Source: Lingula anatina (Eukaryota; Animalia; Brachiopoda). From it: 64,000 nucleotides of DNA. The number at the start of each line of letters is the position of its first letter. The stretch's first letter is position 1. This document shows positions 16,531 to 52,097 of the stretch, in pieces. The position numbers and the translations under genes were made by a program. The notes under the pieces were generated by a model. It searched no databases, had not been told where the DNA came from, and worked only from the letters and a program-made list of their open reading frames with translations. The stretch lies in the NCBI GenBank assembly GCA_051362555.1, contig CM120640.1, forward strand, positions 25,654,225 through 25,718,224, in the 5' to 3' direction.

Positions 16531-17064
16531 TCCAGTATTAAATTCAAGGTTACAGTATCAAATGACCATAAAACTGAAAAGACACTGGAAAATGTCACCA
16601 AATTAATACACGATTAGCATCAGGATGTGTTTTTAAAAGGCAGTGTGCCAATTAACGTGTGAGCCATATTTCATTCCATTCGTAATAGGTGTCTTCACGG
16701 GTGACTACAGGCTTCATCATGAAAAAGCACTTGCTTACACTTCTCCTCTGTTGTAGAAACGCAATGTTCTACTTGTTGTAGACACGCAATGTTCTACTTG
16801 TTGTAGACACGCAATGTTCTGAGGATGGAACGGCCATCTTTGAGTCCTTTTAGCACCAAGGGATGATGTGGAGTGGGCGGTAAAGAAAAGAACATATCAC
16901 CCAATAATCTGGAATAAATCCGTCAAGCTCTTCAGGAAGAATAGGACAATATCCCACTAAGCAGACTTAGGTGGTAACCCTTGTTGGAGGCACGCCGCGC
17001 TGCCTACATGAGTCAATTGCAGTGCACACGGTTTGTAAACGCGCTATTAGACAAGCGAGTCTTA

Positions 17065-21989: not shown

Positions 21990-23074
21990 CCCTTGTTTTC
22001 TACTGGGTTTTTCCCTAAAATCACAGAACTATTTTGATTAAAATTTACCCATGGGCTTACGTTCCAGTTGTCAAAAATTCAAAACCTTTAATTCGGCCAT
22101 AGAGTGGATAGCTAAAAACAAGTTTCAGATACCTGATATCCTACACTTGCTTGATGATTTCCTCATCCTGGCCCCAACCAAACAAGAATGTCAAAAACGG
22201 CTTGATCGTTTCATAGGAGTACCATTAGCCCCGGAAAAAACTACTTCCCCAGCTACTGTAATATCCTTCGCAGGTATAGAACTGGACACCTCACTGCAGG
22301 AGGCCCGCTTGCCCCCAGAAAAAAAATCAAAAACTGCCTAGAACTAGTCCATGCCCACATATCCAAAAAGAAAATAACACTACATGACCTCCAATCGATC
22401 ATTGGCCTTTTAAATTTCTGCTGCTTTATTATCCCGGTCGGGAGGGCCTTTTTAAGACGGCTCATCAATCTAACCATTGGGACGACCCAACCCCACTACA
22501 AAATTCGCCTCAACAATGAAGCCCGTGCTGACCTTTCTATGTGGAAAATATTCCTCCAAACCTTTAATGGGCGGGGCTTCTTCTACGATGATCTTTGGTC
22601 TTTGTCCTCAGCAGATTGCATTTTCACAGACTTATCCGGAGGTAATGGATATGGGGCACTATGTGATACCAAGTGGTTTTATGGTCAGTGGCCACAGGAA
22701 CTAAGAGGTTTCAAAATTGCCATTCTTGAACTTTATCCAATTGTCCTGGCCTTTTTCGTTTGGGGAGATCACTTGAAAAACAAAAAAGTAACAGTCTTTT
22801 CGGGCAATGATCATTCGAAGCCTTGATTTACATTCTTAATAAATGCACCTCGAAGGACCATTCTATAATGCTACTATTGAGAAAACTTATTCTGTATTGT
22901 TTAAAGAACAGCATTAACTTTCGAATCACCCACATACCTGGCGTGGACAATTGCGCCACTGATGCCCTCTCTCGATCCAATTTACAGGCCTTCAGAAGAC
23001 TGCAACCACTGGCAGATCCTCATCCTACCTCTATTCCCCCAGCTTGGTCACTAGACAACTTACTGAAGAATTGA
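21990..23074 (+). pseudogene. DIRS/Ngaro reverse transcriptase-RNase H, frameshifted, N-terminus deleted
   Basis: Motifs LPMGLRSSC..F, LHLLDDFLIL, GVPLAPEKT, FAGIELDT, IFTDLSG..GYGA, IAILELYPIV and HIPGVDN..DALSR. Confidence 0.9.
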
Positions 23075-24116
23075 ATAGCACATTGGAAGCTGCCCTCGCA
23101 AAGAACACCAGGAGGACTTACAGCAAAATTGAGCCGCTTTTATTGGAATTGCAACAAAAAATTGGCCTGAAAGCATTCCCTTCAGATCCAGCAGTCACAG
23201 CCCTAGTTGTACAATATCTAAGTGAACGATACAGGCCATCATTCATCAGGACTCACCTATCTGCGTTAAGCTACAAATACAAGATGGCAAGCATCCCGGG
23301 CCCAACGTTTGCTTTCATAGTTAGCAATTCAAGGTCTGGAGAAGAAAAACCCCTCATGCGACAAAAGGTCCCCAGTTACTTTGTCAGTCCTACATACTCT
23401 GATACAGAGTCTTAGGGTGTATTCCCAGAGATTTTGCAGTCAACCGAGCGCGCACCATAGTTAATTACCCCCTTACAGCTTTCAGTAGGCGGGACAGACG
23501 CTTAAGCCGGCTAAGCTAACAGTAATCTAGTGAGACTCCCCACAGGGGTGGGTCGATCTAAAATCTATGGAAATGGGGTCTTACCGTCTGTACGCAGTCA
23601 GCCTACGAAGCACACTTAATCGCTGCCATGTTTACGCTTGCATTCTTTGGACTCTTGAGGATAAGTGAAGTTGTATCCAGCGATACCGACCACCATCTTC
23701 AACTTGAAAACGTTAAGATAAATCAGCCTGAAGGCACCATCACCTTACATCTCCCTTCTTTTAAACATGCAAGTCAGAACTCGAATCACACTGTGATCAT
23801 TCGCAAACAAATGACTAAGGTATGTCCTGTGAGATGGGTCTCCGAATACGCATCCCTACGCCCTAGCACAAGCTATAGACACTTCTTCGTTCACGCTGAT
23901 GGATCCCCAGTTCGCACCCAGGATTTCAATATATATATAGCCTACTTAGAACACTGTGTGAAGACAGCTAACCTCTCCCACCTGAACATTAAAAGCCATA
24001 GATTTCGTATTGGCAGTGCTTCACGTATTGGCATGTCGGAAACTCAAATCAAACTCCTAGGCAGATGGACATCAGACGCATATAAAAATACCTCCGGTTT
24101 TAATTATTTTTATTAA
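23044..24116 (+). pseudogene. DIRS/Ngaro tyrosine recombinase interrupted by a MITE
   Basis: Motifs AFFGLLRISE, SHRFRIG and IKLLGRWTSDAYK. Removing 23415-23580 plus one TTA restores LHTLIQSLTVCTQSAYEAHLIAAMFTLAFF. Confidence 0.9.
23415..23580 (+). mobile_element. Harbinger-like MITE (same family as 17065), internally deleted
   Basis: TTA TSD at 23412-14 and 23581-83. Confidence 0.9.
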
Positions 24117-25988: not shown

Positions 25989-26307
25989 TGTAACCTTCCA
26001 ACTCGGAGAATATATCCATATTCAGAGATATTGAAGTCCCTGTATCTAGTTTTAATGATAGACCGTTCATACCGGATATAGTTATTTACTAATAGATTTA
26101 TGCCACGCAGGAATCAGTACGATTCCCTATAAAAACTGGGACTCTATAGTAGAAAGGGAGAGACCCCGGGAGATCGTCACGTCTGTCCCTGCTTGCGTGC
26201 TAGCCTGTAGTCCGTATGAGAGGAATAAAGACTATTTAAAACACAATTTATCTGTTGTGTATTCAAGCCGCCGTTCTCTCAAAAATTAGTAACCAACAAA
26301 GGTTACA
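25989..26307 (+). mobile_element. Solo LTR
   Basis: Inverted termini TGTAACCTT...AAGGTTACA, with an internal CTATAAAAA followed by AATAAA. No clean TSD. Confidence 0.7.
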
Positions 26308-26559
26308 GTATTACATGACCATAAAACTGAAAAGACACTGGCAAATATCACCAAATTAATACACGATTAACATGAGGGTGTGTCTTTAAAAAGCAGTGTG
26401 CCTATTAACGTGTGAGCCATATCTCATTTCATTTGTAATATGTGTCTTCACGGGTGACTACAGGCTTTATCATGGAAAATCACTTGCTTACAGTTCTCCT
26501 CTGTTGTAGACACGCAATGTTCTACTTGTTGTAGACACGCAATGTTCTGGAACGGCCAT

Positions 26560-27062
26560 CCCAGCGGGCAAATTATGTTGTTTTAACGTTAGAACAACGT
26601 TGAACCATAAGGTTGATAATACGTTGGATAAACATTGGATTTGAAAGTTGACTCAACGTCAGATAACAACATTCATCCTAGTGTTAGCTAACCTTGCAAG
26701 GAATTCAGTTTATTGGAATGTATTTCTGAATAACAAGTTAAAAAAATTCACTAGTTCACTCAAGACACAAAACAACTGTCATTTTTACTTTAAAACACTT
26801 TTTTTTTATTATTTTGATAAAGTTAGTTACAGTATTGATAAACAAAGTATCACGTTTTCAATAATTAATATTTTAAATTACAATCCATGTCTGCAAGGTT
26901 GTGTCAATGACCGAAATACAACGTTGAGTCAACGTCACATTATGACGGTGTTTTGACGTGGCTGGATCAACGTTGATTTTACGTTGATTTTCGGTAGATC
27001 AACGGCAATTCAACGTATCAACCTGTTTTCAACGTTGATCCAACGCGACTATGCCTGCTGGG
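26560..27062. mobile_element. EnSpm/CACTA-like MITE (CCC...GGG, 2-bp TSD)
   Basis: CCCAGCGGGCA...TGCCTGCTGGG with many subterminal CAACGTTG motifs. The AT duplication is confirmed by the empty paralogous site GGCCATCTTTGAG at about 16832. Confidence 0.85.
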
Positions 27063-27276
27063 ATCTTTGAGCCCTAATTACCCTTTTAGCACGAAGGGAT
27101 GACTTGGAGTGGTCGGTAAAGAAAAGAACATACCACCCAATAATCTGGAACAACTCCGTCAAGAATAGGACAATATCCCACTAAGAAGACTTAAGCTTGT
27201 AACCGTTGTTGGAGGCACGCCGCGCTGTCTACATGAGTCAATTACAGTGCACACGATTTGTAAACACGCGCTATTA

Positions 27277-27502
27277 GGGTGCTTTCCCAGAGATTTAGAT
27301 CGATCTAGACATTGAGATTTAGATCGACCTAACTCCCTGGGGGTGCACGCTAAATTGCAGTCAGCCGAGCGGGCACCATGGTTAATTACCCCTTTACAGC
27401 TTTTAGTAGGCGGGACAGACGCTTAAGCCGGTCAAGCTGACAGTAATCTAGTGAGACTCCCCACAGGGATAGATCGATCTAAAAATCTATGGAAATGGGG
27501 TG
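27277..27502 (+). mobile_element. Harbinger-like MITE (variant GGGTGCTTTCCC...GGGGTG)
   Basis: TTA TSD at 27274-76 and 27503-05. Confidence 0.9.
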
Positions 27503-27559
27503 TTAGACAAACGACTCTTAAAGAGCACATTCTCATAACTGTAAAACAATAATGACATA

Positions 27560-28198
27560 TTCTGATGGAAATTCATCGGTGTAGTCGTAGGATATGATTC
27601 AAGTATTAAACTTTTCAATTTCTACACTAAAAATAGAGCTATACCTGACAGAGCTTTCGATCAAATCCGTGATCTTCTTTAGCATGATGTCATATGGGAC
27701 GATCACTGCTCACCAGTGCTTTGGTGATCGTGTTGTCCCAAATGTTCTTTTTGTTTCCCCGATGTAGTCTTTCTAACATTCACAGTTCTTGTTACCCTGG
27801 CACCTTATATGGTAAATTGCGCTACTAACTTTAAAATCTAGAGTTATGGAACATAAAAGACGGAGCTCCACCACCTCGGAGGTCTCTAGGCACATTCATG
27901 TAGATAATCCGGGACATGAAATCCCGTGGGAGAGAGTAAAGATCTTGGACAGGGACCCTTCTTGGTATGAAAGGGGGGTTAAGGAGGCCATTTACGTACA
28001 TCGGGGCACATAACCCAAGCTTGAACAGAGATGGGGGAGGCACCAATTGTCACACATTTGGGACAACACAATCACCAAAGCACTGGTGAGCAGTGATCGT
28101 CCCATATGATATCACACTGAAGAAGATCAGGGATGTGATCGAAAGCTCTGTCAGGATAGCTCTATTTTTAGTGTAGAAATTGAAAAGTTTAATACTTG
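27560..28198 (+). mobile_element. Truncated Penelope (Poseidon-like) with inverted pseudo-LTR
   Basis: GIY-YIG C-terminus LKSRVMEHKR..VSRHIH..VKILDRDPSWYERGVKEAIY..LNRDGG at 27831-28040. 27598-27745 is the reverse complement of 28054-28200. There is a 12-bp TSD AATAATGACATA, with the empty site at about 17529. Confidence 0.9.
28105..28155 (+). ncRNA. Minimal type I hammerhead ribozyme in the Penelope pLTR
   Basis: ACA-CTGAAGA-A-GATCA-gggatg-TGATC-GAAA-GC-TC-TGT: intact core, 5-bp stem II and palindromic AGCT stem III. The inverted copy at about 27646-27693 has a mutated core (CTAAAGA). Confidence 0.75.
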
Positions 28199-29136
28199 AA
28201 TAATGACATAGGGTGGGTAACGTTTTCTGAATAACAAACAGTGCGCGTGCGTGCACTCTTGTGTGATTGCTTGCCTACACGTAGTTGATTTAAAACTAAA
28301 GGTGTCGTACCTGGGATTTTCCCGCCAAATCGAATTTTCCTCAAAAAAGTTGTTCTTACTTATGAACCGTTGCTCGACCCGTTCATGCTACTTGAATTCC
28401 GTGTGTTACCTCCTACCGAAAGATTCTTTTTTATCTTTGTGAAAGATAACGTTAATGCGACAGATCTTCAGTTTTTTTTTGGCTCGTTTTTCTGTCTGAT
28501 TTTTCTGTCACAAACACCTATTACAATTTTTGGGAAAGTACCACTTCTTATATAAATTGAGCAGCATGCGCGCGATAGCTGTGACTATAGCAGCATGCGA
28601 TAGGATTGGGCTGTAGCATTATTGATAGCAGCAAGCGTCAGCTGTGCCTGTTGACAGAGTGCCAACAGTTAACACAACTCACTATATAATGTACAGTAGT
28701 GCGTGTCGGTTACAACAAATCTATTAATAAATCAAATTATTACGAATGAGAATTGAGATGCCTTGGACCCGGTGTGAATTCCCTGAATGCATTTCAAGTT
28801 TCTAATGGAATAAATATGTATAATGGTTTGATCCAAATACCATGGGCGTTTTTTCATATCTGGACGTAACGCACCTCAACATGGCAGAACCAAGAATCCC
28901 ATTTGGATCCTGGATTATGGACTGCTCTCTCTACTTATGCCTGGTTAGTGGAAAAAATGATTTCTCGAACATTTATCAGTGAATTCACTGAAGTTACTTA
29001 ATGCTGCCTACATAACAGAATGACTTTGATTATTCGGGACGATCTGATTTAATGATTCAATCCCATTCTTGCTCAGTAGACAAGGAGTAATCAAAAGGGC
29101 TGAATTAAGCGTTCTTCATTTTTCCGATAATTACCA

Positions 29137-32887: not shown

Positions 32888-34777
32888 TAAGTGAACCCCA
32901 ATATCAGAGATGTGTGAAGGGTGGGGGTTGATAGAAGACCACAAATTTTCTTCAGAAGACTTATAGACAGAGTTATAAATGTGAAACTCAATGATAAGTA
33001 AACAGTATATAACTTCAGTGATAAAAAAAACGAATAGTTGATGAGGAAAGGAGGGTTGAATTTTGGACTAAGCTGATTTATAATGATGTGCAGGTCAGAC
33101 TGAGCAAGAAAATCTAGCTTGCTATGGTATCTACACTGATCCGTGAAACGTCTGACAAGGGATATGATAGAAGTGTGAAACTAAAAGTACAGGTAGGTAA
33201 CTGAATCGGCATAGCAGGTGCCCATGTGATATCCAATAAATTTCGGGACATTGCATCCTCCCATGTCATCAGGTGACTGGAGATTCTATACGCAAGGACC
33301 TTTAATTTCTTTGTGCAGTCGCCGTGACCGCTATCGGTGCAAACAAGAAACCCATGGATAAAGAACGTTTAGTCAACAGCAACTGCTAAATCGCTAGAGA
33401 AAATAAAACTTACCGCATTCATGTAACAGTCGGCAATTGTACTGTTGATCCTTGCTTGAAGTTGTGCAGAATCTGTCAAGTGTACGCTTCAACACATCGA
33501 GTGAACTGCTGGAAAGCTCTCATAGAAGTAAAAGCCGATGAAATTTTTTGAACTGAAGATTTCAGTTGAAGATTTGAGATAACTTGTAGCTTAATCGTAT
33601 CATGCGCGTCAACAGAATGCATCAAGCAAAATGAGCTCAGGCAGTGATTTCCCATGGTATAAGTAGCAACATGTGCCTCAATGGAGAAATCCCCTCTAGG
33701 GTACAATTGAGCATGTGCAGAATGCGCACGTGCGTAAATAAGCTCAGGAGATTGTTGTCGCCATAAAATGTCGTTTGACTACGCCAAACTTTCCTATAAT
33801 TGTATTCTTAACGGATTAACAACTCTTCGTATGAGAACTTGATTTCACAGTTTATACATTGTAAGTGACTCAGAAATATTATATATTCTATTATACCACA
33901 AAAACACCAGTTATAGCAATTATTCTGAAATCTGCGCTTGCCGTCGGACCTCGTGACTTCCACTGATGTCTGTACTCTGTAATAATCACAAAAAAGCAAC
34001 TTTTTTAGAAAAAAATCCAGGGACAAACTTTGAATGTAAAAATGGATTCATTGACTACTAGTAAATGTGGGAAAATTGCCGTTTACCTCAGGAAAATTCT
34101 TCTTTTTTTGCCAAAATGAACAGTTGTTATATATGCTTTTAATGTTTACCCAGCAAACCCTGGGATGTATAACGGAGTCCGACTGATGCTTATATAGATG
34201 TAACAACGAAAATGAGCAGTGAACTCTCCTAATTCTTTCGTGTCGTTTGCATTATATATAGTTTCGTGCCTAATTGTTTTTAAAAAAGAATTAAAAAAAA
34301 AACAAACAAATGCATTAATTTCATTAAAAGTATTACAACGTGTAACCAAGACAAAGCCAACTACAGTGGTGCAACAGATTTATTTTGAGAAACCCTAAAA
34401 TATATGTGCAACCAATGATTCATATGGTGACTCCAATGTAATGAGGCCTAGATCAATAAAGTTGATTTCAACACCAGTGAAGCAAGTGTCTCCGCCGCTA
34501 TACGGCGCTATTTGTCGCTCCAAGCACATTAAAAAAAGAAAAATAATTAAATTACATGTATTAGTTCAAAAGATTTCGCAGAGACTTACCAGTATAAGAG
34601 CACAAAGACCTCACCATGAACCAAAAGAGTGATTAAAGAATTAGCTCAGGCACTCAGACCTCACAGGGAGTATAAGTATTATGTATATGGTCAAATAACG
34701 CCGAAAAGATTCACCTAATCTGCATTTGCATATGCATGCCATCACGATGACAGTTTAACCTTCTACAAAGCAGCAAT

Positions 34778-36279
34778 AAAGGGTACCGGAGAAGATCAGC
34801 ATTGGTCAGAATTGTGCCGGAAGTGACGTGTAGTGGTGTAAGACGTAAAGCTGAGAGGTCATTTTTAGCTGGAGGTGAACGGGAGTGAAGACATGGACTC
34901 GGAGAAAAAAGCAGTTTTTCAAACAACATGGTAAGATGACATTTCTTCTTTACGCATTTTGGGCAGAGAATACTTGTAGAAATAATAGGCACATGATATG
35001 AAAACGTGACACGGAACTTGAAGGTGCAAAATCGTGGTTAATTTGCAGACAACTTGTTTTGAAATACATGCTGCATCGACCGCCAGCGCGACAAACAGCG
35101 TAAAGGGAAAGGTATTCCCGTGATTTTTAGTGATTTTTAGCTCAGATAAGAGGCTGTCAGAATGTCACCTTTGTTTCAGTTTGTCTTTTTTACTTTTTAT
35201 TACTTATTAGTTTACTTCTAATTATACATGTATATAAATCTGTATATATTTGTTTGTATATAAATAGGGTGTGCGTGCTAGTGTGTGTGAGGTTGGGTAT
35301 GTGTGAGTGTGTGCAGGAGCCTTTATTTAAATAAAAATTAAAAAATTGTGATAAAAATAGATAAGTCACTCTGGTACACTTCAAATGTTATCAATTCCTT
35401 ATCAACCTGAATGTTTAACGTACCATAAAAAATTTAATTAATATAACATAGTATATTTTCTCTTAAGTGTGAGAGTGGGAGTGACTGAAGTTTTCTTTTT
35501 TGTACTACATATATGCTGTATTTGTGAAGTATTGTGTCAATAAAAAAAAAAAAATAATAAAAAAAAAATAAAAAAAAAAAAAAAAGAATGTCACCTTTGT
35601 CTTGCCATTTGTCACTGATAAGTGGCTACCCCGGTGTAAAAGGTGTATTAATGTGATCATATGTGTAGAATTTCATGTCAGATGGACATATAAAGATAAA
35701 AAATTCGTCAAAATATTTAAAAATAGATACATCTTTGCACAGTAGTTGTGGATCGCTACGACTCAGTTGTCAGTTACGAACTACATGTACTTCCTGGTTT
35801 TCACAAGGTCCTTCAAAGACCCTAAAACATCGTTATAATTGCAGCCCATACCACAAAACACCCAAAAATACTTAGATATGGACACATCAGATTATATAAA
35901 TGCCAAAATTCCACATGACAACGATTTATAGCCTCCCGGGAATTATTTTCCCTTTACGCTCTTTGTCGCACTGGCGGTCGATGCAGCATGTATTTCAAAA
36001 CAAGTTGTCTGCACATTAACCATGATTTTGCACCTTCAAGTTCCGTGACACGTTTTCATATCATGTGCCTATTGTTTCTACAAGTATTCTCTGCCCCAAA
36101 TGCATAAAGATAAAATGTTATCTTACCGTGTTGTTAGAATAACTGCTTTTTTCTCTAAGCCCACGTCTTCATTCCCATTCACCTCCAGCTAAAAATGACC
36201 ACTTAGCTTTACGTCTTACACCACTACACGTCACTTCCGGCACAATTCTGACCAATGCTGATGTTCTCCGGTACCCTTT
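34778..36279. mobile_element. Foldback non-autonomous DNA element with about 335-bp TIRs (AT flanks; superfamily uncertain)
   Basis: 34778-35110 is the reverse complement of about 35947-36279. Confidence 0.85.
35175..35584 (+). mobile_element. Poly(A)-tailed retroposed insertion with 16-bp TSD
   Basis: AGAATGTCACCTTTGT at 35159-35174 and 35585-35600. AATAAA runs into an A-rich tail of about 45 nt. Confidence 0.85.
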
Positions 36280-39030
36280 ATTGCACTTGTTTATAGCACC
36301 GAGAATAATTTCAATGATTGCTTTTGAACGTGATCTTGTACAATAGAAAAATGACAGCATATACCCAGTAAGCAGTATTGGGGTGTTAATAGAGTCTATC
36401 AAACAGTGTAACGTACTGAGTTGGTAGATTGAAGTCCATGAAATATGGTTAAATACATGCAGTCCATCTCCGTAGGCCATTTCAAAACGGTTTTCTCAAA
36501 GTCGTCGTTTGCATGGTTTCTAATCTCTATAAATGGGTTGATAAATGTATTACTTGGCGCAACAGTATGACTTTTTCACCATGCAGATCTATTACTGCAT
36601 CGCCCTGTATATATTAATGAGAGCATTGATAAATGAAAAATATTATCAAATTAGAGAAAGTGCACCAAAGAAAATGTTTCCTGGACGCGTTGAACAATGA
36701 GATAATGCTTCGTTTCTTACCGTATTTATGAAACAAATATATATATATATACATGTAGTATTTACTGTATGTAGTAAACAGACTTTTTGATGGTCACAGT
36801 GTTGGTCCCATGCAACGTTAATATAAACAGGATTCTGATATACAGGTACCTGTACATGTACATATACATTTATATATTTACACGAATAACCTCCTCCAAA
36901 GAAGGGAGTTTTACTTTAATTGGCGTTGGTTTGTTTTCGACAAGATATCAAATGTTTTATGGTTAGGGATCTCATATGATTCGGACAGGTTAAGGTTAGG
37001 CGGACGTTTTGGGCTTTGTATACCGTACTAGACATGTCTTCCCTGTACAAATTAATGAAACGTGGACTACCACTCCTGTTACAGGTAAGTAGTCACAGGT
37101 TACGCAACGAAGTTTTATAGTACCTCTATTTTGCCAGTACTATAAATGAAGAACATACATCTTTTGGGAGCCTAAAAGATTTATTCGTATATTCTTATTT
37201 TCCAGTTACAATGTATTCTCTTTTATCCTATAGATCATCATTCCAATGTCATGATGTATCACAAAGTCTTTCTCCTACATTACCTTATTTACATGTAGTA
37301 ATATAATAATTCCTCAGCTCTTACACAATGTCTATGATTATCCCTTTTTCCATAACTTTCCATCATTACGTCATTACCAAAATATTATCATTTTCTTATT
37401 AGGCAATGGTATGTTACTTGACCTTAGGTCGCCATTTCTATTAATACAGATTTTTCATTGTATCATCCTGAAGGAATGATAACTATACCCCTTATTCTTT
37501 TTTTATTATTGAACAACACATGCACTCTTTAACTCTCTTACACTGTTTAACCTCTTAACAAATGTATATTGTATCAGTTATGAAAGGTACAATGTATTCA
37601 TTACGATCACAACTTTGTATCTGTACTTTTAATCATTTTCATTACGATAGTTTTACCTGTAGTTGCCATGCATTTTCTCCCTTTTCATATGTGGAAACTT
37701 TTTAAGTGGATTTTTTTTTTTGGAAATTTTATGGGATTTTATGGGCGCGCGGTTGTCATCCATAAAATTAGTGTGAACCTTCTTTGAAACCTGCAAGGGG
37801 TAATATTTCTAATGAACATAGGTAATCAGTACTGGTATAACATGACGGGTTGCTGAAGTGAAGATGAAAAGAATCAGTGTACTCGTTCCATGCTTCTTTT
37901 CACTTTCATCAGGTGTCTTATCTCTGGCAGACAGACAAAATCAGTAATGTACTCAGTGGCACCTGGGTGAGAAGTTAGTTTGAGTGTGGGATGAGAACGT
38001 TTTATCCTAATCTGATAAAATAACTCGACTTTATACTGCACCTACGTTTTATTGCTGAGTTCTTTTCCCCGCTACTAGTAGGCCTACAGTGGGGCATTTT
38101 GCAGCCGATTTTTTTAGAAATTTACATTTATAAACCGAAGTAGGAATTTCACTTGATCTCACTAAAATAGTTTCATGAAATTAGAATAATACTAATAAGT
38201 ACTCTATACAATAACATACAAATTACTGGGTTTTAAAATGCAGTCTCAAAATGAAGATAAGGGAACTTATCTGGTAATGTGGATAATATTGCTCTGTGAC
38301 GAAAGAAGGCAATGGTCAAATGGTCGAAGGACAAATGGCAGAAATGACAATAATATCTTTGGGAAGTGTATAGGGTTTTATATTTGATGTGTTATCTTAT
38401 TAGAACGTAATTAATAACGTAATATCAATTAAAGGTGTTCATTTATTTCTTCCAGATTTTTGATATCATTAAGTAGTGGTTTTATTTCTTTCAAATTTAC
38501 GCGGACTTTGAACGGAAAGCTCATTAATAAAATCTGGTACATGCATGTTGCATGTACCAGGAGCTACCGTAGGCCATTTCTGAACTTAATTTAGCATTAC
38601 GGCTTTATTCAATTTCCAAAGACATCGAGAGCTGTTATTTATTCGATGCCACAGACTCTTCTCTTATATTTGTCTTTTATCTGCAACTTCATCTTTACTT
38701 TATTTCTTATCCGCAGAATACCCGGTTTACGCACAGGTGCATGTACAGGTACTTGTTCATCTAGATTTTTAGTATAAAGAATGCAAATCGACCGAATATC
38801 AAACTTTACACAGTTAACCTTGTGATCTACAGTTTAGTTACGGTCTTTGCCATACATTCATAATAAAGTGAATTGTTTTATGGCTACCGATACAGGGATC
38901 GGAGAAAGAAGTAATCAGAGTGCAGAGTAGCACTTCTGCAATTACAAAACAACCGGTCGCTTCTTTAACACGGAGGTATTACGCAACTAATACAATTCGT
39001 TTAAGCGCCGCTATCGCATCAATAAAGTTT

Positions 39031-40132: not shown

Positions 40133-42645
40133 TAGTCAGGCGGTTAAGTCCAAATTATATCCAGAATTGTGCAAAAGTTGATAAAAGCATGAAACTTTCC
40201 ATGATGAATGACCCTTAGGTGTTTGTCAATTTTGGATCGGGGGGCAACTCCAAAATTCACAAGTACCCGGATGAGACGCTTTCTTAAATATGCTGACTCA
40301 GCATTTTATGTACATTCAGATTTCATTAAAACGAGCACTAACAGTACTAATTATGATATCATAAATAGATTTAAAAAACGTACACTCACTGTGGACATCT
40401 ATGAGAGCAATGGTGACGTCACGATGACGTCACTGGTGATATTGCACAACTTAGAATGACAAATATCCACTTTCTCCTACAGGAACAATAGTCAAACTCT
40501 GTAATGTTTCTTTTCCGTAATTTTTTATAACAGAAGTGCATCCCTTAGGGTTAGAAAGGTAAAATTAGCTTGATTGCTACTTCCGAGACATTAAGCATAT
40601 TCAATATGGCCGTCAATTTTTGAGGAAAAAAAGAAAAACAACCAGAAGTCGACGGAAATACTTTATTTGGGGCTGTTGTGAATGTGTTTCATGTCGGAAG
40701 AACACAGTAGGGCACAAGACTACATCCTAGCACATTGTTGTTACTGATAAAAAACAAAATGGCCGCCAAAACATAGGGTAGAGGCAGAGGGTAAAGTAAA
40801 TCACCAAATCAGCATATTTCTAGTATCATCAGTCTAATTAACGGCATTTTCTTCTTTGATTTTTCCGTTCATCGTGATTTTTCGTTAGCTTTTATCCTAC
40901 ACTACCATTATATGCTTGTTTAATATTCAACTTATGTGTGGTGAGGGCGTAAGCCCTCCAAGTAGTCAGGTTACCAATCTATTTGGTCCCATAGTTGAAC
41001 AATACTATGTTTTTTCTGTAATAGTTTGAAAAAGAACTGCCCCTTTTTGGTCAGAAAAGTCAACTTAGCTTGGCTTTACTAACGTCTGGGACATTGGCAC
41101 TTTTCGTAACCCAAAATGGCTGCCAATTTTTACGCAAAATTACATACACTGTAAGTATTCATAGCAATTTACATCAAACTTATACAGTGCATGAAGATTC
41201 TTCATTTTAAAGTCTATTTGCATGTTTACAAATACAGAGGTGGTGTTTATTAGGGTTTTCTTTCACATAATCTGCAAGTCATTTTAATAGAAATAGCAAA
41301 ATAGCCACCAAAACGTCACGGAAAAGCCTGGGTCCCAATCCATTATGTTTTTTTTCAGCTGAAAAAGATTTTAAACTAATGAAATCTGCATATACATTGT
41401 ATGTTAGTAAAATAATACGCCTGTGGTCAATGCAGGCAACATAATAAAACAGATTGGTTAACTAGATGTTACAAAGAGGAAAGGAAATATGTTCGTCAAA
41501 TTTCTTCTTCCGTTAATCAGCCAGTCATCTCTTATGTGTCAACAGCAACCCCTTAATGTTTGAAAAATAAGGCTACTGACCAATGTAACGGCCAAAAAAT
41601 TGATGTCAAGTTGTAAAAATGCCTAAAGAGACAGCAAAGAGCAAGAGGGGAGAGGGGGATCGGGGACAAGCAAAGTATGATTGGGCTCACCATCTTTGAA
41701 CACTGCTGCGGATATAATGACCTTATCAAACATGCACCTGTTTTTATACCTCCCCCAAAACATCTTAACACGTAAGATTCCCGTGCAAAGGACGAGCAAC
41801 AGCCATAGGAAGCCAGCAAGGCTGCCCTACGCCTACTTGCGTTGCCCTTCCCTTGCCTGTACTCCTTGTACGCATAACGTACGTAGTGCACGATGCGGGA
41901 CACATGCTAAAGCCCGTCGGGCGCAGAGATACTTCTGACGTGCGGAGGCTGAGCTTCTCAAGTACTGTCCACGCAATTTCTTCTTGCGCACTAATTACAA
42001 TCACCAGTTACTTGATTTCTTCCCTACGATCTAGCTACGGCCCAGCCAGACGAGAGGAACCTAAAAAAAATTAGATCCTACTGTGTTTTTATGACGGGAA
42101 ATGTGTTCACAATAGCCACAAATAAACTATATCTGTCAACTCTTGGTTGTTTTTCTATTTTCTCTAAAAATTGACGGCCATATTGAAAATGCTCAAAGCC
42201 TCGGAAGTAGAAACCAAGCCAACTCAACCTTTCTAGCCCTCAAAGATGCATTTCTGTAATGAATGTTTACAGGAAAGATCATTGCAGGGTTCGACTATTT
42301 GGCATATGCGAGTGAGTGGGTATTTGTCATTTTGTATTGAGCAGTATCACCCAGTGACGTCATCATGATGTCATCATTGCTGTAATAGATGTTTACAGCT
42401 AGTGTACGTTTCTCAAATTTATTCATGTTATCATAATTAACGCCGGTAGTGCTCGTTTACGTGAATTCTGGATGTACACAAAACGCTGAGTCAGCATATT
42501 TTAAGAAAGCTGCTCATCCGGGTACTTGTGAATTTTGGAGTTGCCCCCCGATCCAAAATTGACAAACACCCGATGGTCATTCATCGTGGAAAGTTTCATG
42601 CTTTTATCAACTTTTGCACAATTTTTTGGCTTAGCCGCCTAACTA
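40133..42645. mobile_element. Academ-like non-autonomous transposon
   Basis: TAG...CTA termini, about 500-bp imperfect TIRs (40133-40630 versus 42160-42645) and a 3-bp TSD CCA. Confidence 0.85.
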
Positions 42646-43113
42646 CCACTGTACATGTTACATACTATTTATTCGACAGTAAATCGATAATCGACTTGCT
42701 TTTCATAACAGGAGAATTAATTTTCAACAGTGCATTCGCTCTTAATGTATACAAACACGCTTGCTGAAATGGCTAACTATTCTGAAAGAATATTGCCTCT
42801 GCGATTCCAATAAGTTAAAAAGTAAAACAAAATTTTCACCAATCCTAGCGCTGTGTTATACTTTCGAATTCTACCTTCAAATTACATCATATTCACAAGT
42901 GTTCTTTTTTTCGCTGGGTGACTACTGATGATCAACTTGATAAATTACTGACGATTTACAGGGAAAAGAATCTACATGTTCAATGAAGCATGGATTCGAA
43001 AGGAATAGCAGAGTCATTAAAAATTATGTCAGTTAAATAGGTTAGTATCTCGCGTAGCTGCCATTAAGTGGCTGACGATATCTATATGTATTCTTCCAGG
43101 TACTTGTACCGAT

Positions 43114-43349
43114 TCATCTACTTTCTGTAGGGTTTATTGACCAGTCTCTCTGTTCCCCTGAAAACTCGAGTTTTGACTGTGATTTGACTGTGATTCTGCT
43201 CCTCAGAAAAAAAATGCTTACAATATTCTCTTTTGACGACACTTCTGGTAGAATGCTAGTATGCGGTCCTTCAGGGCTGTAGTTTTCCGGGCACGACCAG
43301 TGCTGATGCCTGGTAGCATACAAAGCTTCATGTGACGCCGCTGGATGAT
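43114..43349 (-). CDS. Candidate C-terminal tail exon for the exon-2a isoform of the TRHR-like receptor
   Basis: Acceptor actaacgtttttaag|AT CAT CCA. It is open for 78 codons in exactly the phase left by the exon-2a donor (A|gtatgt) and is Ser/Thr-rich. No homology support. Confidence 0.4.
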
Positions 43350-43500
43350 CTTAAAAACGTTAGTTGAGTGATTCCAATGCGAATAGCACATATACATAAG
43401 TTAATAAAACTCTCCCTCATGCATTATTCGATACAATGCCACGCTTCAAAACTGATCAAGTTACTGTGCCACAAGAGTACACTTAGCCTGTCATTATGTT

Positions 43501-43677
43501 CAGACCCAGGCCAGGGGGGTTTCGGGGGGTTCGAAAGAACCGCCCTTTTTGCTGGGAAAAGGTCCACTCTGGGTAAAATTAGATCTATTTACTTGAGGAT
43601 TTTATGGTAAAAGGTCCACTTTTTCAGAAAACGAACCCCTTCCCCCCCCCCCTCTGAAATTGCTGGCTACGGGCCTG
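43501..43677. mobile_element. hAT-like MITE, inverted copy of 12843-13022
   Basis: Shared GGGGGTTCGAAAGAAC, AAAAGGTCCACTCTGGGTAAAAT and CTGGCTACGGGCCTG. Confidence 0.8.
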
Positions 43678-43910
43678 AGACCTGTAATACAGTGTGCACT
43701 ACTCTTACCAACTATTCTGCATTACTTGAGGATTTCTGTCTACTTTCGACTTGCAAATCGTTTATTGATCATTGCATTGCATGAGTGTATGCCATACTGG
43801 TACATGTACCAAGAACAGTGTAAAGACATTATACGTACTTCCAAGTGTGCCTTATTACGTTAGTAATCATTGTCAGACACTGGTGTTCTTGAAAAATTCA
43901 TTTATGGATA

Positions 43911-44219
43911 TCATCTGGAAATTGAGTCCTCTTTTTGCAGCTCAGAAAACGTTGTGTGAATGTTTGACCCTGTCCCAAACTTTCTCTTCACGGCAGAGCG
44001 GCACAGGAGTCTCTTAAACGCTATCTGGAACCTTTTCGACATGGCGTTGTACAAAATGGGGTTAATGGCAGAGTTCAAAAAGATCATCATTAAGCAAAAC
44101 AGTACGAACCATTCATTTAAGAACGGGCGTGATGAAACAGAGTTGTACACGACGAGACCTCTATAGGGAAGCCACAGGACTGCAAAGAGAACCACAATAA
44201 CGGCTAGCATTTTGACGAT
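43911..44219 (-). CDS. TRHR: TRHR-like GPCR exon 2b (TM6-TM7, helix 8 and C-tail)
   Basis: Acceptor ttcttttctag|ATC GTC AAA ATG. It encodes [20 protein letters not shown]...[19 protein letters not shown], with the stop at 43911 and AATAAA at 43766-43761. Joined to exon 1 it gives 397 aa. Confidence 0.92.
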
Positions 44220-45237
44220 CTAGAAAAGAAAGAGATTAAACAAGATCAAATAGAATGCTTAGAGTATACATTGCATGTGTATTTTAACTAGCAGCAGTAT
44301 GTTTGTCTTTAAGGACAATTTTATGCTTAATTATATGGTCACAAAAGCTACTGTAGTTAATGAATATTGCCAATGACAAATCCATTTAATATTTTAAATC
44401 ATAGAAAGTATTATGTAATAAGAAAGATAAATACTCAAAATTTGAAACTTCACTACCCTTTCAATGAATACCAACAATTACAAATTAGACTAAATTGTAA
44501 CATTCTAAAACTAACAATCATATCAGATATTTGTTTTTATTTTACATAGCCTGTTTTTACATAGGAGAAAATCATTAAAAATTTGATTAATGAAATTTCA
44601 TGCTGTTATAAACATAACAGTATCAGGATAACACAACCATAAATAATACAAAGCAGCAAACTCTAGTCACTACTTTTGGAATACACATCATAACCCTTTG
44701 TTGTTTCTGCTAATACTCGTGTCAATGTGCATAAATCATATTACTTTTGTGCATAAGTGCATTTCGTGGACGAAATATTAACAGTGCATACATGCAAAGG
44801 ATGTTGACTGGAGCAAACAGAAAATCATATTCCCAGAAACTGCATGCCAAAGAAAAAAAACGAAGAGGTGCAGATCTCACGATATATAACGTACTTGTAA
44901 ATTCATGCTATATTCCCTTATAATAATTGTTTTCTTACAATGACTCCTAAATTGCTATGGTTCCTGCTATTCAATACAACAATCCTAAAAGCAGTGTATG
45001 GAATAAACAACGGAGGAAGTTGTTTCAATTGGTTTTCTTATATATATACTGTATATGCACTAGTTAGCAGGGTTCTGCCTCATACAGTACAAATATCATG
45101 CATTTTACTACATACATGGTTTAGTTGTGCCTTTTGGAAATCCTGTTATTATGATGCCGTAGCGAGGCTTGAAGCAGATCTATCTTAAAACAGCTCTACT
45201 GATATCTCTGTCTAACATTTATAAAATCTCTATCTTA

Positions 45238-45935
45238 GGCCCCTATTTCACACAGACCACGAATCCCACGAATCGCCAAGAATTGACAAATTTCAGGATT
45301 CGTGAGGGTTCTTGAGGATTCGTGAGATTTTGCCAATTTTCTGGTCTAATTCGACACGCTCACGATTCAGTTACGATACAGGTACGATAGTGTTACGAAT
45401 ATTCGTGGGATTCGGCTGGAATCGTGAGATTTTGCCAATTTTCTGGTCTAGTTTGACACGCTCTACGATTCAGTTACGATACAGGTGCGATAGTGTTACG
45501 AATATTCGTGGGATTCGGCTGGAATCGCACGAATATTGTCCAGAAATTCATTACGATTTTATGGAATCGGGAGTTCGTGGCCAGAACTTTGAACAGCTCA
45601 AAATTTTTGCCACGAATTCCCGATTGATCAAGATTTGCAAGAACTGACTACGATTATATACGAATCTGTTAAGAACTTCACGACCTGATTACGATTCAAC
45701 CACGAATCCTGAAATCTTCAATTCCTGGCGATTCGTGGGATTCGTGGTCTGTGTGAAATAGGGGCATCAAAGTTTTTGCCACCAATTCCTGTTGGCCAAT
45801 AAGTGCAAGAACTGACTACGAATATATACGAATCTGTTAAGAACTTCACGAACTGATTACGATTCAACCACGAATCGTGAAATTTGTCAATTCATGGCCA
45901 TTCGTGGGATTCGTGGTCTGTGTGAAATAGGGGCA
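45238..45935. mobile_element. Harbinger-like MITE with duplicated right end
   Basis: The TIR GCCCCTATTTCACACAGACCACGAATCCCACGAAT is matched at about 45730-45766 and 45900-45935. TTA flanks and an internal tandem duplication of about 102 bp. Confidence 0.85.
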
Positions 45936-45976
45936 TTACATACATAAAATTTCATGCGCCATTGAACACAGATGTT

Positions 45977-46195
45977 TCACATACTTCTTCTTAAGGCCTC
46001 TCGAAAGCTAGTAGACATGATGTTGTAAATTATGGGGTTTATTGCGCTGTTTATAGAAATAAGCGTCCTGCACAATAGGAGAAGCCAGATATCCGTTTTC
46101 GGGCGGTCTGTCATAGAGTTGTAAACCATTAGTCCCCGATATGGAAGCCACAGGAAGGCAAATAAAACCACTATCACCATTACCATCTTCACAAC
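45977..46195 (-). CDS. TRHR: TRHR-like GPCR exon 2a (alternative TM6-TM7 and helix 8)
   Basis: Acceptor ctgttcctcag|GTT GTG AAG ATG. It encodes VVKMVMVIVVLFAFLWLPYR...LCR..INSAINPIIYNIMS..F. It ends either at TGA 45977 or at the donor AA|GTATGT at 45984. Confidence 0.88.
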   Translation of the reverse strand, partial: VVKMVMVIVVLFAFLWLPYRGLMVYNSMTDRPKTDIWLLLLCRTLISINSAINPIIYNIMSTSFREALRRSM

Positions 46196-46390
46196 CTGAG
46201 GAACAGTTTAGAATTGGAGAATGTTGAATTTAAGCGTTAAGTGTGAAGGAAATCTTGCTCAAACTAAGAACTTATCGTACAGAAGTCTATCTGGATACAA
46301 AAGAAAAACATATTTCAGCGCCCAGGCATTTACTCATAACCGACTTTGGTAACCGACTGTCCCCGCATTGTAGAAACATAGAAAATATTT

Positions 46391-46459
46391 TGTAGAGCCG
46401 CGTTTTGCAACTGAACGCATAAAGGCATTTTGCGTTCGGTTGCAAAATGCGGCTCTACA
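46391..46459. repeat. 29-bp-arm palindrome in the intron
   Basis: TGTAGAGCCGCGTTTTGCAACTGAACGCA, an 11-nt loop, then TGCGTTCGGTTGCAAAATGCGGCTCTACA. Confidence 0.85.
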
Positions 46460-48451
46460 GCTTAACCCAAAAGAGGATGGATTGTATGCAATTGCATTTT
46501 CTGTCTGCACAAGCCTTTTATACGTATCGATTATGTGGTTGTGGCCTTTACAAACAACTGCTTTTTTCTTGACTTAACAACTTAAATCTTCGATCACTCG
46601 GTCTTTGCTCAGTAATATATATCTGCAAAGGAAACAGAATTTGCAAAAGCATCGCTGATTTTTATAAAGAGCTACATTTGTAGAAAAGCGATCCAAGCTT
46701 TTCTATTGCTTTTCGATGTTCAAGTTGTGTGGGCGAAGGAAATACTAATCAGAATACAAGACTTAAAAGCACTTGAAGGCACTTAGTTTTACTTAGTCAA
46801 CATGTCGTCATTATGGATGTGCATTTAACCTTGGGCCGAGCACCAGCACTTACAGTTGGGCAGAAGGTGGGTATAGACAGCCACAAATCAATTAAAATAT
46901 GAATTAATCCAAGTATTCAATCACAATGAATTAGTTAAAATTAACTATCTGGAATATCTTATGCATGGAAAACAGGTTGTGCGATTTTTACAATCGGGCT
47001 CGTGTAAGTAAAACTGACCATACCCCTCTTAAAAATTAAAAAATGAACTGTCATATGCAATAAACATAACTGATGATGCGCAATTTGATTACACGTTTTG
47101 GTTACCATTACCAGCCTATTATCTGAACTGCTATTTGACAGAAACAACTTAATCAGCCGAAGATAGGAAAATGGCAGCATCAATTGATTGGAAATGATAC
47201 TTCTCGGAAATTATTATTTTACGCAATGCTATCATGGCATGGGATAAAGGATGAGCTTTAGACAGCAGACATCCTGTCAGCGACATTCAAATGTCCGTTC
47301 ATCCGTTTCCAGTTGGCAGCCAGGCGAGATTTATGAGAAATCGTAGCCTTGTCTAAAAATTCCACAGTATCAGGTAACAATCCAGCTGTGAAACTGACCC
47401 CATGATGTCTCATCATAATTAACCTCTTATTTCATAGTTTGTCAAATGGGAAATTATTCTACATGTACCAGATAAACGGATTTTTCCGGTGGAATGGAAA
47501 TGGACTACAGAGGGACAACTTGATATTGCTGAAACGCTCTCATACTTGAATTGAAAAGAATGTTTCTTTCAATAACTTCGTTGTTCGCCTCAAGTTTTGA
47601 AAATGCGTCATCAACGTGTATCATTTCATTGACAGACAATTCATCCTATAATATCTTTCTCGATCGCCTTAATTCCAGATAAAATTCCAAGACGTTCAAT
47701 AATGAAACCATGGATAATCTAACTTTCTATATTTATGATTTTGCCACTGAATTTTGATTTAATTCAGTTAGTTAATTCAGTTCAAAACAGGCTCTGTGAA
47801 ATTATTTCTGTTGCTTAAAATGTTCTATCAATGCGATATCAGCTCGTTTAATTATACACCATGATTCTATCAAAATAAAAATGCAAGACAATAGATGTCA
47901 ATGAATGTCATTGAGAGATAATTAAAGGATTACGCGGGCTTCCTTTCATGTAGGTCCGCCATATTTAGGTCTCGGCCTTGCTAGACCTCGGCTATTCTCG
48001 ATGTGAATGCTCTCAGTGAGACTAGGCTTATTTGCAGTAGCACCCAACAAATATTTTCTCCAAATCGTTCTTAAGCGAATGTTAAATGAAGATAACACGT
48101 TTCAGGGTGTTACTGACAATCATGACGGGGTGGCCTGGAGTGGTCGATCCATTCACCTTTCCAAGCTGGTTTCCATTATTCCAGCAGGAAAGCCGTTCAC
48201 CCAGTGCAAATCCGTTCTCCACTTGGTATAATTACTTGTACGTAAACCTTCAGTTTCCAGTTGGTAATGACCAGATAAACGGATTTTTGGGTGAACGGCT
48301 CTGCTGAGTGCCCCCCCCCCCTCGTATTTGCTCACCTGGTTAAAAAAGCATGTTAGTCATTTTGACTAAAAGCGTCATTCACTGAGATCAAAATATTTAG
48401 TCACCATCCACACATACACTTTTCATAACTAATAAATAACACAATGCCTAC

Positions 48452-49336
48452 TTGTATCCTAGAAGACGGGTTTTGTTCGCTTCTTGTAGAAGATTTTTTA
48501 TTAATGGACCCCATCTCTTCTCGATTTTTTTCATTCTTGCGATTGCGTCGTCTAATACTATCCGCCACAGCTCCCGTCCTCTCGCTGCTGAACAAGACCC
48601 TCCCTATCAGGAAATACAGCACTGCAGTGAGACACAGCGGAAGAATATAAAACATTACAAGATCCACCAAGTAATATACAAAGTAATGGTCTCTCTTGAG
48701 TTTATAGTCACAGTTATTGAACGTCGTTTCATTGACTTCATTTATAGGAGTGATTTTAGTAAGAGCTAACCAAGGTGCAGAGTAGAGCGCGCTGAATACC
48801 CACAAAGCAATGATGATCTTTTTGGCGCGTGAGATGGTACATATAGTATAAGCTTTCATCGGATGGCATATGGCTATGTATCTTTCTACAGTGAACGCTG
48901 TTATAGATAAAGAAGACACGTTGATTCCCATATAACTAAAAAATGTCAACAGGGCACATGAGACAATCCCGTATGGTATGATCCCATATTTGTAGAACTG
49001 TCCTAGTGTGAACGGCAAAGTGGCAGTGAGGAGCACTATACAGTCAGCGGCGGCGAGACTCACCAAGTAACAATTCGTGGTGCTGTGCATCGTCTTGGTT
49101 CGGGTAACCACCCAGATAACTAGCACGTTTCCCAGGATTCCCACCAAGAATATCAGGAATCCCAAGGTGATGGAAATGACTTTATGTGCAATATTGACTG
49201 CCGGAGCCGTAACATTTGAAAGTGGATTGTCGGTCGTATTTTCCATTGTGTTGTTTAAAGGGAAAACTGCAACCGCGATCTCTGCCGACTGGTCTTGAGC
49301 AGTGACGTTTACCGAAATAAATGGCCAGCCCTCCAT
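48452..49336 (-). CDS. TRHR: TRHR-like class A GPCR coding exon 1 (N-terminus to TM5/ICL3, 295 codons)
   Basis: Motifs GILGN, TNCYLVSLAAAD, YMGINVSSLSITAFTVERYIAICHPMKA..CT.SRAKKII, CDYK and Y..D...FY..P. It ends SSRIQ|gtaggc (phase 0), matching the vertebrate TRHR SSRKQ|VTKML junction as I recall it. The acceptor ttctttacag at 49482 gives 145 nt of 5' UTR. Several N-x-T sequons are present. Confidence 0.95.
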
Positions 49337-49582
49337 CTCCTATGAATGTGTTGTAGAAACTAGTTCAAATATTTTGCGAGACGATGTCACTTTTAAGTCT
49401 GAACTAACTAACCGAAGAGCAGGTATCCATATGTGCGTCGAAAATCAACACAGTCTAAAAGCCTTGTTTCAAAGACTCAGTCTGTAAAGAAGAAAAAAAA
49501 TGACATCATGCAAAATGGTGAAAATATAGGTACATGATTATTCGGTTAAAATCATTATTTTCCTCTTAGAAAAATGCCACTA

Positions 49583-49584
<2 letters not shown>

Positions 49585-49654
<70 letters not shown>
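49585..49654. repeat. (TA)n microsatellite
   Basis: About 35 units, directly visible. Confidence 0.98.
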
Positions 49655-49656
<2 letters not shown>

Positions 49657-49930
49657 TACTAAGATGACTTGCAAATCACAAAATGTCATTTACACAGCAA
49701 TATGTCTATGTCCAGACAAGCAGACTTATAGATAGAATTCGAGTTCATAAACAGCAGTTAAAAGACCCGAGTGTGCGAAACACCCCCTGCTCAGAAGACT
49801 TTGAAAAAATGTGGGCGTGGAAAACTTAGGATCTTCCCATTCTTTAAAGTAAATTCGAAAGATGAAAATGAACGCAGGGCAAGGGAAACGTATTTCATAC
49901 AGATATATTCAAGTCCATGTTAAAGTCATA
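49655..49930 (+). mobile_element. Penelope GIY-YIG 3' fragment
   Basis: Frameshifted translation TCKSQNVIY..QTSRLIDRIRVHKQQLKDP..PCSE..CG..RIFPFFKV..RRARETYFI. Confidence 0.75.
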
Positions 49931-50716
49931 ATAACTCTTCGTTTTGGCCAAAAATTGGATTTTCCTGGAAAAAACGGCAATTTTCCCGTACTTACCAATG
50001 GCCAACGACCCCATTCCTGCATTCAAAGTTAATCCAGGGTTTTTTTGCTAAACGTACGGTTTTTTGTTAAAATCTCTTAAGAGATTTTAACTGACGGAGC
50101 TCTCTCTGACATTGCAAAGTCACTGGTGACCTACTTAAAACCGCGGGAAAAGCAGACAACAACAACACTATATAAGATTCATGAGATATATTCGTCTTTT
50201 TGTTAAAAATGCATTTATATCCACAATGTGTGCCATTCTGGGCTTTTCGTTATCCGACGCACTGTACAAAAACTCGCAACTTACGTCTGAGGGCTTCCCG
50301 CCATTGTTATTTTGGTCTCGAATGAACGCGAGAATCCGCGTGACACCATTACGTCATTAGCAACGAATGCACTTGTCGACCGGAAAAAAGGGATCGAAAG
50401 CCCTATTGACAAGCACAGATTTTAGTTTTCCTACAATAACGGCCGTTTTAGTGGTAAAATACAATAGAATATATTTCCATGCGTTGTTTACAATGTATTT
50501 CATGCGGATTTTTGAATCTCAAAGGAAGAGTTATTATTGCTTTAAATGAAAAATAATCATTACAATTTAACTTAATAAAATTAATGAACAACAATTGACA
50601 ATCAATTATTGGACTGTCTAACACTGTTTATGCAACAAAGAAAAAAATTTGTCACTGTCTCTAAGATAAGACAAAAGACAATACAGTTGTCTAGTAACAA
50701 TAAATACAGAGTCATT

Positions 50717-50764
50717 TTATTGTCTGAAGGGCCTGAAAGAGGCGAAAACGTTTGCGACGAATAA
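50717..50764 (+). ncRNA. Degenerate hammerhead-like motif
   Basis: gt-CTGAAGG-GCCT-gaaag-AGGC-GAAA-ACGTT: perfect stem II and palindromic AACGTT, but the core box is damaged. Confidence 0.45.
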
Positions 50765-50832
50765 TTAACCATTCCAATCATTATGTGACTTGTTTTGACT
50801 TAAAATATATATTCCTGTATATAAAGAAAAGG

Positions 50833-50871
<39 letters not shown>

Positions 50872-52097
50872 ACCCATAGTCTCGTATCAATATACTCTAT
50901 GCCATTTAACACAGCCAGTCTTAAACATATATGTAAGACGCACCAAAGACTGATGGACAACTTATGTAGCTTAAATTGCGTCCACAAATATAAATCGGTA
51001 AAACTGTTTTTTCTACTGCAGTAAACTCTTGGCAGATGTAGCTTTCATTGAAGGGTGCTCTCAGAATCTATTAAAGCTGAAAATAATTAAACATATAGCT
51101 GGCTTCGTAACACGTGCGATCATGCATCAGAATTGATCTTCCCTATTAAAGAGGATCGAAAACTCCAGATGTATAAGAGCTTGTTGGCATCATTTGATTC
51201 GCATCGGGAAATGACAACAACGCATCGAATCGAAGGTTTCCAGAAGTACAGTTAACAGAAGACTTTTAAGTCATGTTCTGAGGCCAAGAACTCTTTAGAC
51301 ATCCTTGTTGACCGAGAAATAGAGAAAGAACCAGAATGGAACCGTCAAATTCATCACCGCCATCTTGGTCACAGGAGGCAAGTCTGGCTTTCTGGTAAAT
51401 CAATATTCATTCTTCATTCTCTTGATGGCAAGCTCTGTGTTCGGTGCCAAGTTTGGGAGAGGTTTGCTTAAGGCTGTGTGCATGGTGGACCTGTTGCTTA
51501 CAGTGGTGGGTCAGTCCATGTTGGATCAGTTGATCCTAAACGACAAGGTAAATGGTGGTGACGTCTGAAGCCAGGTTTCGACGACAAAACTGGTATGCTA
51601 GATCACATCTTGGTCGTGACTTTCTGTTCTAACATGACAATGCCTTACCCCATCGCAGGGGCGTGACCAGACCTTTAAAAATTGTACGCACTGGATTTTC
51701 AAAATTCCCATGTATAGCTAAATGTAGACTTACGCAACGGATGAAGGGCAGTTTAAATAATATGTGCCAAATATAATAGCTTAGTTTTCACCAGTTATAA
51801 AATCATCACTTAAAGTTTAAAATATTTTCACAATATAATCAAGTTCCAGTATATTATTTCACCCAGAACCAACGTTTTTTTTCCAGGATTGGGGTATAGG
51901 CCGTCCAAAATTGCCATTTGTAATTTCCTTCAAAATTTCAGGGCGTCAAACCTTTCCAAGTGCCATGAGCAGGGTGAGGTCTGGGTTAAAATGTAAATGA
52001 AAAAATGTTTTAAAATAATAAATTTCATTGGGGAGGAGGGTTAAAAATAATCGATAACGATTTCACGGTGACGCTCTTTCGCAAAAGAACGCCCTTG

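Follow-up and report, generated by a model that had tools for sequence, protein, structure and literature searches.

The question raised by this locus, which lies in a 64-kb window of Lingula anatina DNA (the whole stretch that was analyzed), is whether one receptor gene uses two alternative last exons to exchange part of its ligand pocket and, as the original prediction held, thereby switches an arginine for a leucine at a position that contacts the peptide. The gene is on the minus strand and consists of exon 1, for TM1 to TM5, and two homologous terminal exons, 2a and 2b, for TM6, TM7 and the tail. The coding part of exon 1 (48452..49336, minus strand) runs for 295 codons from the N-terminus, with the ATG at 49336, into ICL3 and ends in ...SSRIQ at a phase-0 donor (CAA|GTAGGC, after 48452). 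Exon 2a, which we term a-type (45977..46195, minus strand), encodes TM6, ECL3, TM7 and helix 8 in 72 codons followed by TGA, and its acceptor (ttcctcag|GTT) is in frame with exon 1. Exon 2b, or b-type (43914..44219, minus strand), encodes TM6, ECL3, TM7, helix 8 with a cysteine, and a tail in 101 codons followed by TGA; its acceptor (ttttctag|ATC) is also in phase with the exon 1 donor, and it is the spliced and annotated form. Since both can be joined to the donor in phase and each closes with a TGA, they are candidate alternative last exons rather than cassettes, in the layout known for such exons in GPCR genes: one shared donor and two homologous, in-frame terminal exons that each carry a stop. 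The intron between exon 1 and 2b (44220..48451, minus strand, 4232 nt) contains 2a, and its RNA joint was placed at 44220/48453, one letter fitting either side. The intron between exon 1 and 2a (46196..48451, minus strand; GT...AG, phase 0) is predicted from the sequence only and was absent among the RNA joints listed. Motif matches identified candidate poly(A) signals for a 2a transcript at 44385..44541 on the minus strand (AATAAA at 44541, ATTAAA at 44390) and an AATAAA at 43766 downstream of 2b. By tblastn there was no other TRHR-like exon in the 64-kb window, and there was no Rfam match in 42000-52000.

The best protein match to the gene was P0001, a Lingula anatina thyrotropin-releasing hormone receptor-like protein that corresponds to exon 1 plus 2b with three residues different, one of them in exon 1. 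These were Asn279 (exon 1 codon 279), Ile361 (44023) and Ser396 (43918) in the window, compared with His, Arg and Tyr in P0001; RNA reads carried the Arg letter at 44023 and the Tyr letter at 43918, with run X5 mixed at 44023. Ile361 of the window stands in for a conserved basic residue of helix 8. RefSeq holds four accessions for the gene, all of them the 2b protein. Directly 5' of the start codon, at 49340 on the minus strand, there is an acceptor-like ...cattcatag|GAG ATG, a motif that suggests upstream untranslated exons; such exons would fit the four accessions with one protein. As to the receptor family, human TRHR (PDB 7WKD, 7X1T) was the top PDB match for each of the three exons by a wide margin, the E value of exon 1 against human TRHR was 7e-55 (next family 6e-28), and Pfam 7tm_1 was above cut-off in exon 1, 2a and 2b. 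Furthermore, AlphaFold models P0001 with confidence as a 7TM bundle that has seven long helices plus helix 8 (pLDDT 81). Protein and structure matches placed the gene closer to TRHR than to ETHR, GHSR or NMUR, and the trees of this analysis were built with no ETHR outgroup.

Against human TRHR, both terminal exons can be aligned without a gap, starting at residue 264 and covering TM7 and helix 8 (E 1e-20 for 2a and 7e-26 for 2b), and based on that alignment the Arg/Leu difference falls at human position 306 (7.39), the PYR motif at 281-283 and the Asn that follows it at 289. The TM7 and ECL3 residues that had been quoted for 2a and 2b proved exact on the minus strand, where 2a reads ...PYRGLMVYNSMTDRPKTDIWLLLLCRTLISINS, and PYR and the following Asn are indeed kept in both exons. 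Arg7.39 of 2a (human R306) is encoded by AGG at 46067..46069 (minus strand) and Leu7.39 of 2b by TTA at 44091..44093 (minus strand). A one-letter error does not account for the leucine, since it takes two changes to turn TTA into an Arg codon and P0001, with its three other differences, also has Leu. That Arg306 is a TRH contact is borne out by the portions of the structural literature consulted, in which R306 is among the TRH contacts and its replacement by Ala lowers activation (PMC9437008), R306 and Y310 (7.43) are both on the contact list of a cryo-EM letter (PMC9592576), and Arg306 contacts the Pro-amide and Asn110 the pyroGlu (PMC9485831).

Position 7.39 was Arg or Lys in 67 of 68 TM7 stretches, these being the ones that could be anchored among 164 proteins found mostly with the exon 1 query, and the lone Leu was P0001, the 2b protein of the window gene itself. 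It was Arg or Lys in 149/149 stretches from the best 150 representatives for 2a, a set obtained with an Arg-bearing query, in which two proteins had no anchor and one protein was counted twice. Without the arginine kept in nearly all relatives, the 2b protein is likely to bind TRH-type peptides poorly. The a-type exon departs from the family at a different contact: its codon for 7.43 (human Y310; 46055..46057, minus strand) specifies Ser, as in all three a-type exons, at a position that was Tyr or Phe in 147/149 stretches of the same set (best 150 for 2a), the exceptions being Ser in P0163 and one His. With Ser at this contact, and with an end right after helix 8, 2a can hardly be regarded as the normal form. 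The original prediction also stated that exon 1 keeps the Tyr and Asn of SYMGIN, and Y3.33 and N3.37 are present; it missed that the S of this motif is a Ser at 3.32 in place of human Gln105 (Gln in 126/135). It likewise missed a second pocket change, Ser versus Phe at 7.43. Elsewhere exon 1 keeps T3.29, Y3.33, N3.37, W4.60, Y181, R185 and Y5.39, and the residues by which we recognized a TRH/EFLGamide receptor (Y3.33, W4.60, Y181, R185, Y5.39, Y6.51 and N6.58) are all present. The set of basic 7.39, aromatic 7.43 and Gln3.32, which describes typical contacts and is not a definition of orthology, is incomplete in both isoforms, because of L7.39 in 2b, S7.43 in 2a and S3.32 in exon 1.

The age of the exon duplication could be approached through three further Lingula models, P0002, P0121 and P0163, which are apparently on the same contig as P0001. 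The first exons of P0002 and P0121 differ by one residue and their terminal exons differ in kind (a-type versus b-type, respectively), while P0163 (XP_013403735.1) has a third exon 1, sister to that of the window gene (70%), and a terminal exon identical to that of P0002 over 69 residues, a mosaic that reflects either recent exon shuffling or a mis-joined model. In the exon 1 tree the window gene was sister to P0163 and apart from P0002/P0121. The terminal-exon tree (69 columns from TM6 to helix 8, 28 rows picked from named or long matches, with a long-branch warning for 2a) joined 2a with the ends of P0002 and P0163 (98/95) and 2b with P0121 (93/83), and a constraint of 2a with 2b was rejected weakly (p-AU 0.037). 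Consistent with these groups, L308, S310, I319, I322, T325 and E329 (human numbering) occur in all three a-type exons and both b-type exons differ; the pocket difference common to all a-types versus both b-types is the Ser/Phe at 7.43. As a-type and b-type exons group across paralogs, we infer that the a/b duplication took place before these gene copies arose.

The Arg/Leu split did not stand up as a conserved a/b splice difference. The b-type exon of P0121 has Arg7.39 (CRMMIFLNS), as has the TRH-type receptor of the brachiopod Novocrania, and thus Leu7.39, like Ser3.32, is private to the window gene copy among the sequences examined. An Arg in orthologous 2b exons had been named in advance as evidence against the proposal; it was found in the nearest case, P0121, which is a paralog and not an ortholog. 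No true ortholog of 2b was found, and no a-type exon was found outside Lingula in the relatives searched, including the best 150 representatives for 2a. There was also no candidate for a short stand-alone relative of 2a, and among the isoforms listed for Haliotis, Pomacea, Mytilus, Daphnia and Oratosquilla TM6-7 came in one class, with small differences of an allelic or species kind. P0165, an oyster protein and the top match, has two identical TM6-7 copies and was taken as a model artefact, not as a second exon-pair case. An exact internal TM6 repeat is present in P0012, a Lingula model on another contig, and both P0165 and P0012 are probably assembly or annotation artefacts.

Given the above, we favor, at a probability of about one half, the interpretation that the last exon of a TRH/EFLGamide-type receptor gene has been duplicated, with 2b joined to exon 1 in RNA and 2a intact and likely rarely used, and that the Leu form is predicted either to be weak on TRH-type peptides or to prefer another ligand. 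Duplication of the TM6-TM7-tail exon would have come first and tandem copying of the gene later. The single donor of exon 1 would then have a choice of two acceptors, that of 2a being nearer and weaker and that of 2b farther away and stronger, with 2b dominant; the pyrimidine counts before the two acceptors are 14/20 and 17/20, respectively. The old distinction between a and b would consist of Ser versus Phe at 7.43 together with changes in ECL3 and helix 8, and Leu7.39 and Ser3.32 would be later changes in the window gene copy.

Close behind rare use of 2a ranks the tentative alternative that this exon is silent, either as an alternative exon that was lately switched off or as the remnant of two tandem genes (exon 1 with a, exon 1 with b) after the second exon 1 was lost, which would leave one receptor, the Leu form. 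Seven of nine same-species raw-read runs were aligned (X3 and X6 were left out), using 6-30% of each, and splice joints were listed only at >= 3 reads in one run. At 95% likeness no joint for the window gene was listed in four RNA runs; at 90% likeness the joint from exon 1 to 2b was seen with 2, 1 and 3 reads in X7, X8 and X9 and with none in X5 (6 reads, 3/4 runs). A joint from exon 1 to 2a was not listed among the seven runs at 95% or 90% likeness, which favors silence, but the depth was very low (~1-6 on exon 1) and joints with fewer than three reads would go unlisted. Of the two exons proposed as alternative, 2b alone was seen spliced in these runs; both are terminal, with stops of their own, and a splice switch is not supported by the RNA. 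The depth on 2a was 1.16 in X7, 0.91 in X9 and 0 in X8 and X5; summed over the four runs it was ~2 in a bin within 2a versus 13 and 17 in the two bins of 2b. Because the depth on 2a runs on into the upstream intron, the reads there probably represent one unspliced ~300-nt pair in each of X7 and X9. In the accessible portion of a published Lingula transcriptome set (supplement of PMC8557429) no a-type motif was found; in that same portion the paralog is present with a b exon, and the window gene is represented by an exon 1 read-through alone. In this read-through, the frame of exon 1 stays open for 16 codons beyond the donor and then meets a stop (48404-48451, minus strand), giving a 5-TM form in the published contig that is probably unspliced RNA.

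The exon itself gives a mixed picture. On the side of a living exon, the reading frame of 2a is free of stops and frameshifts up to and including helix 8, and its acceptor is intact and in phase. Relative to the a exon of P0002, it has changed at 2/24 conserved columns versus 20/45 variable ones (Fisher p 0.0025), which shows purifying selection on 2a; such past constraint is no proof that the exon is in use today. The pN and pS of 2a versus 2b were 0.28 and 0.71. In addition, a-type exons end two other gene models (P0002 and P0163), and no remnant of an exon 1 between 2a and 2b was found by tblastn in the window, both of which speak against a relic. On the side of decay, 2a is the longest end branch of the terminal-exon tree (1.22), and its TGA lies at +20 from Asn7.49, in the column where 2b has its helix-8 Cys; the first Cys was at +19 to +21 in 180/214 stretches. 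The predicted 2a product of 367 aa thus ends right after helix 8, with neither the Cys nor a tail. For mouse TRH-R1, the relevant section of one article describes palmitoylation at the helix-8/tail cysteines as restraining the inactive state (PMC9485831). A possible donor (AA|GTATGT at 45985/45984) lies just before the 2a stop and could link 2a to another exon. About 40 nt past that stop, within the would-be 3' UTR of 2a, is a MITE-like inverted-repeat element (45238..45935, no strand assigned) with 74-nt arms that are 92% complementary and a TTA on both sides; inside it are a second right end, nested at 45718-45767, and direct repeats, it may be of the Harbinger/Tourist type, and many RNA reads with loose ends, from other copies, pile on it. 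The long branch, the stop at the Cys column and the element 40 nt downstream all fit decay. Finally, the RefSeq names of P0002 and P0121 carry no isoform labels, as if these were separate genes, which counts in favor of a silent relic.

A more elaborate scheme, to which we give only a small share of credence, is that the locus is built as a tandem array of modules, with three or more exon-1 modules (TM1-TM5) that would be combined with a/b TM6-TM7 modules by splicing and exon shuffling, yielding pockets with R/F, R/S or L/F at 7.39/7.43 and N or S at 3.32. Such receptors may serve new or non-amidated ligands, a move suggested by the failure to find a TRH-type precursor in the lineage, and the tail-less 2a form would be without normal desensitisation. 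EFLamides are described as TRH orthologs in the part of one study that was available (PMC7294237). As far as the consulted sections of a neuropeptide survey go, the EFLGamide/TRH precursor was reported in nemerteans only and in 0/6 brachiopods, and its supplement counts two TRH/EFLGamide receptors in Lingula (PMC8557429); absence of a precursor from transcriptomes is not proof of loss.

The gene resembles TRH/EFLGamide receptors in most of its pocket residues and in having an intron before TM6 (..RIQ|VVKM), where many homologous gene fragments end or begin; it differs from them in its two terminal exons, in Leu7.39 (2b), in Ser7.43 and the missing tail (2a), and in Ser3.32. The splice variants of mammalian TRHR, as summarized in the section seen of PMC9485831, differ only in the C-tail and signal alike. 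The accessible text on arthropod (Bombyx) ETHR-A/ETHR-B (PMC8175484) offers a closer likeness, a single gene for a peptide GPCR whose two alternative 3' exons each carry pocket helices and a stop, although the ETHR exons start at the end of TM4 and not at TM6, the receptor families differ, and ETHR-A/B are arthropod-wide and both expressed, whereas the a-type was found only in Lingula and only b was spliced in the RNA. Closest in boundary are Drosophila OAMB-K3/OAMB-AS, in which, according to the excerpt seen (PMC2650798), everything from the third cytoplasmic loop on is exchanged along with the last exon; unlike the window gene, OAMB is an amine receptor whose isoforms differ in second messenger and are both functional. 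The design is known already from ETHR-A/B and OAMB, and for TRH receptors no description of such an exon pair was found in the literature outside subscription papers.

These comparisons also bear on the idea that splicing is regulated so as to replace an Arg isoform competent for TRH with a Leu isoform acting as decoy or orphan, the Arg/Leu split being the selected purpose of the exon pair. It draws support from R306 being a validated contact, from the Leu being unique in our census, and from the duplicated 3' exons of ETHR-A/B, which in the text seen shift peptide potency by ~20-fold (PMC8175484). We nevertheless consider it unlikely, because the b exon of the paralog P0121 keeps Arg, the supposed decoy 2b is the only form seen spliced, and the Arg form 2a is without both the aromatic contact at 7.43 and a tail. 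Very improbable, finally, is an assembly artefact (two haplotypes, or a neighbor's exon joined in): Lingula models of the TRHR family do look error-prone (the doubled TM6 segment of P0012, the mosaic P0163), but 2a and 2b are alike at only 41/69 residues and 129/207 bases, which is far beyond allelic, 2a differs from the paralogs' a exon at 22/69 residues, and reads from other animals span the exact 4232-nt intron, though they are blind to its content.

If both exons are used, the gene would provide, within the TRH family, a natural exchange of half a receptor, a test of what 7.39, 7.43 and the tail at helix 8 do in receptors of protostomes, and a help toward finding the missing brachiopod ligand. 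Even with 2a silent, the expressed receptor lacks the basic residue of TM7, a loss rarely met in nature, and has in P0121 an intact paralog; the two genes would be a ready pair for the study of drift in duplicated peptide receptors. Since the design is known from ETHR and OAMB, the degree of surprise is moderate.

Several other elements were identified in the window. Broken ORFs resembling a tyrosine-recombinase retroelement lie at 21057-24113 (plus strand), with matches to Pfam RVT_thumb (E 9e-4) and Phage_integrase (E 6e-5) that were both under cut-off, and may represent a DIRS/Ngaro element. Two ORF pieces at 15605-16469 (minus strand) had no Pfam match; by eye we take them to resemble the end of a Penelope-type reverse transcriptase plus a GIY-YIG nuclease. 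Further long inverted and dispersed repeats lie at 40165-40711 / 42077-42623, 34773-35123 / 35934-36284 and 16546-17864 / 26299-28528, which are probably the ends of DNA transposons.
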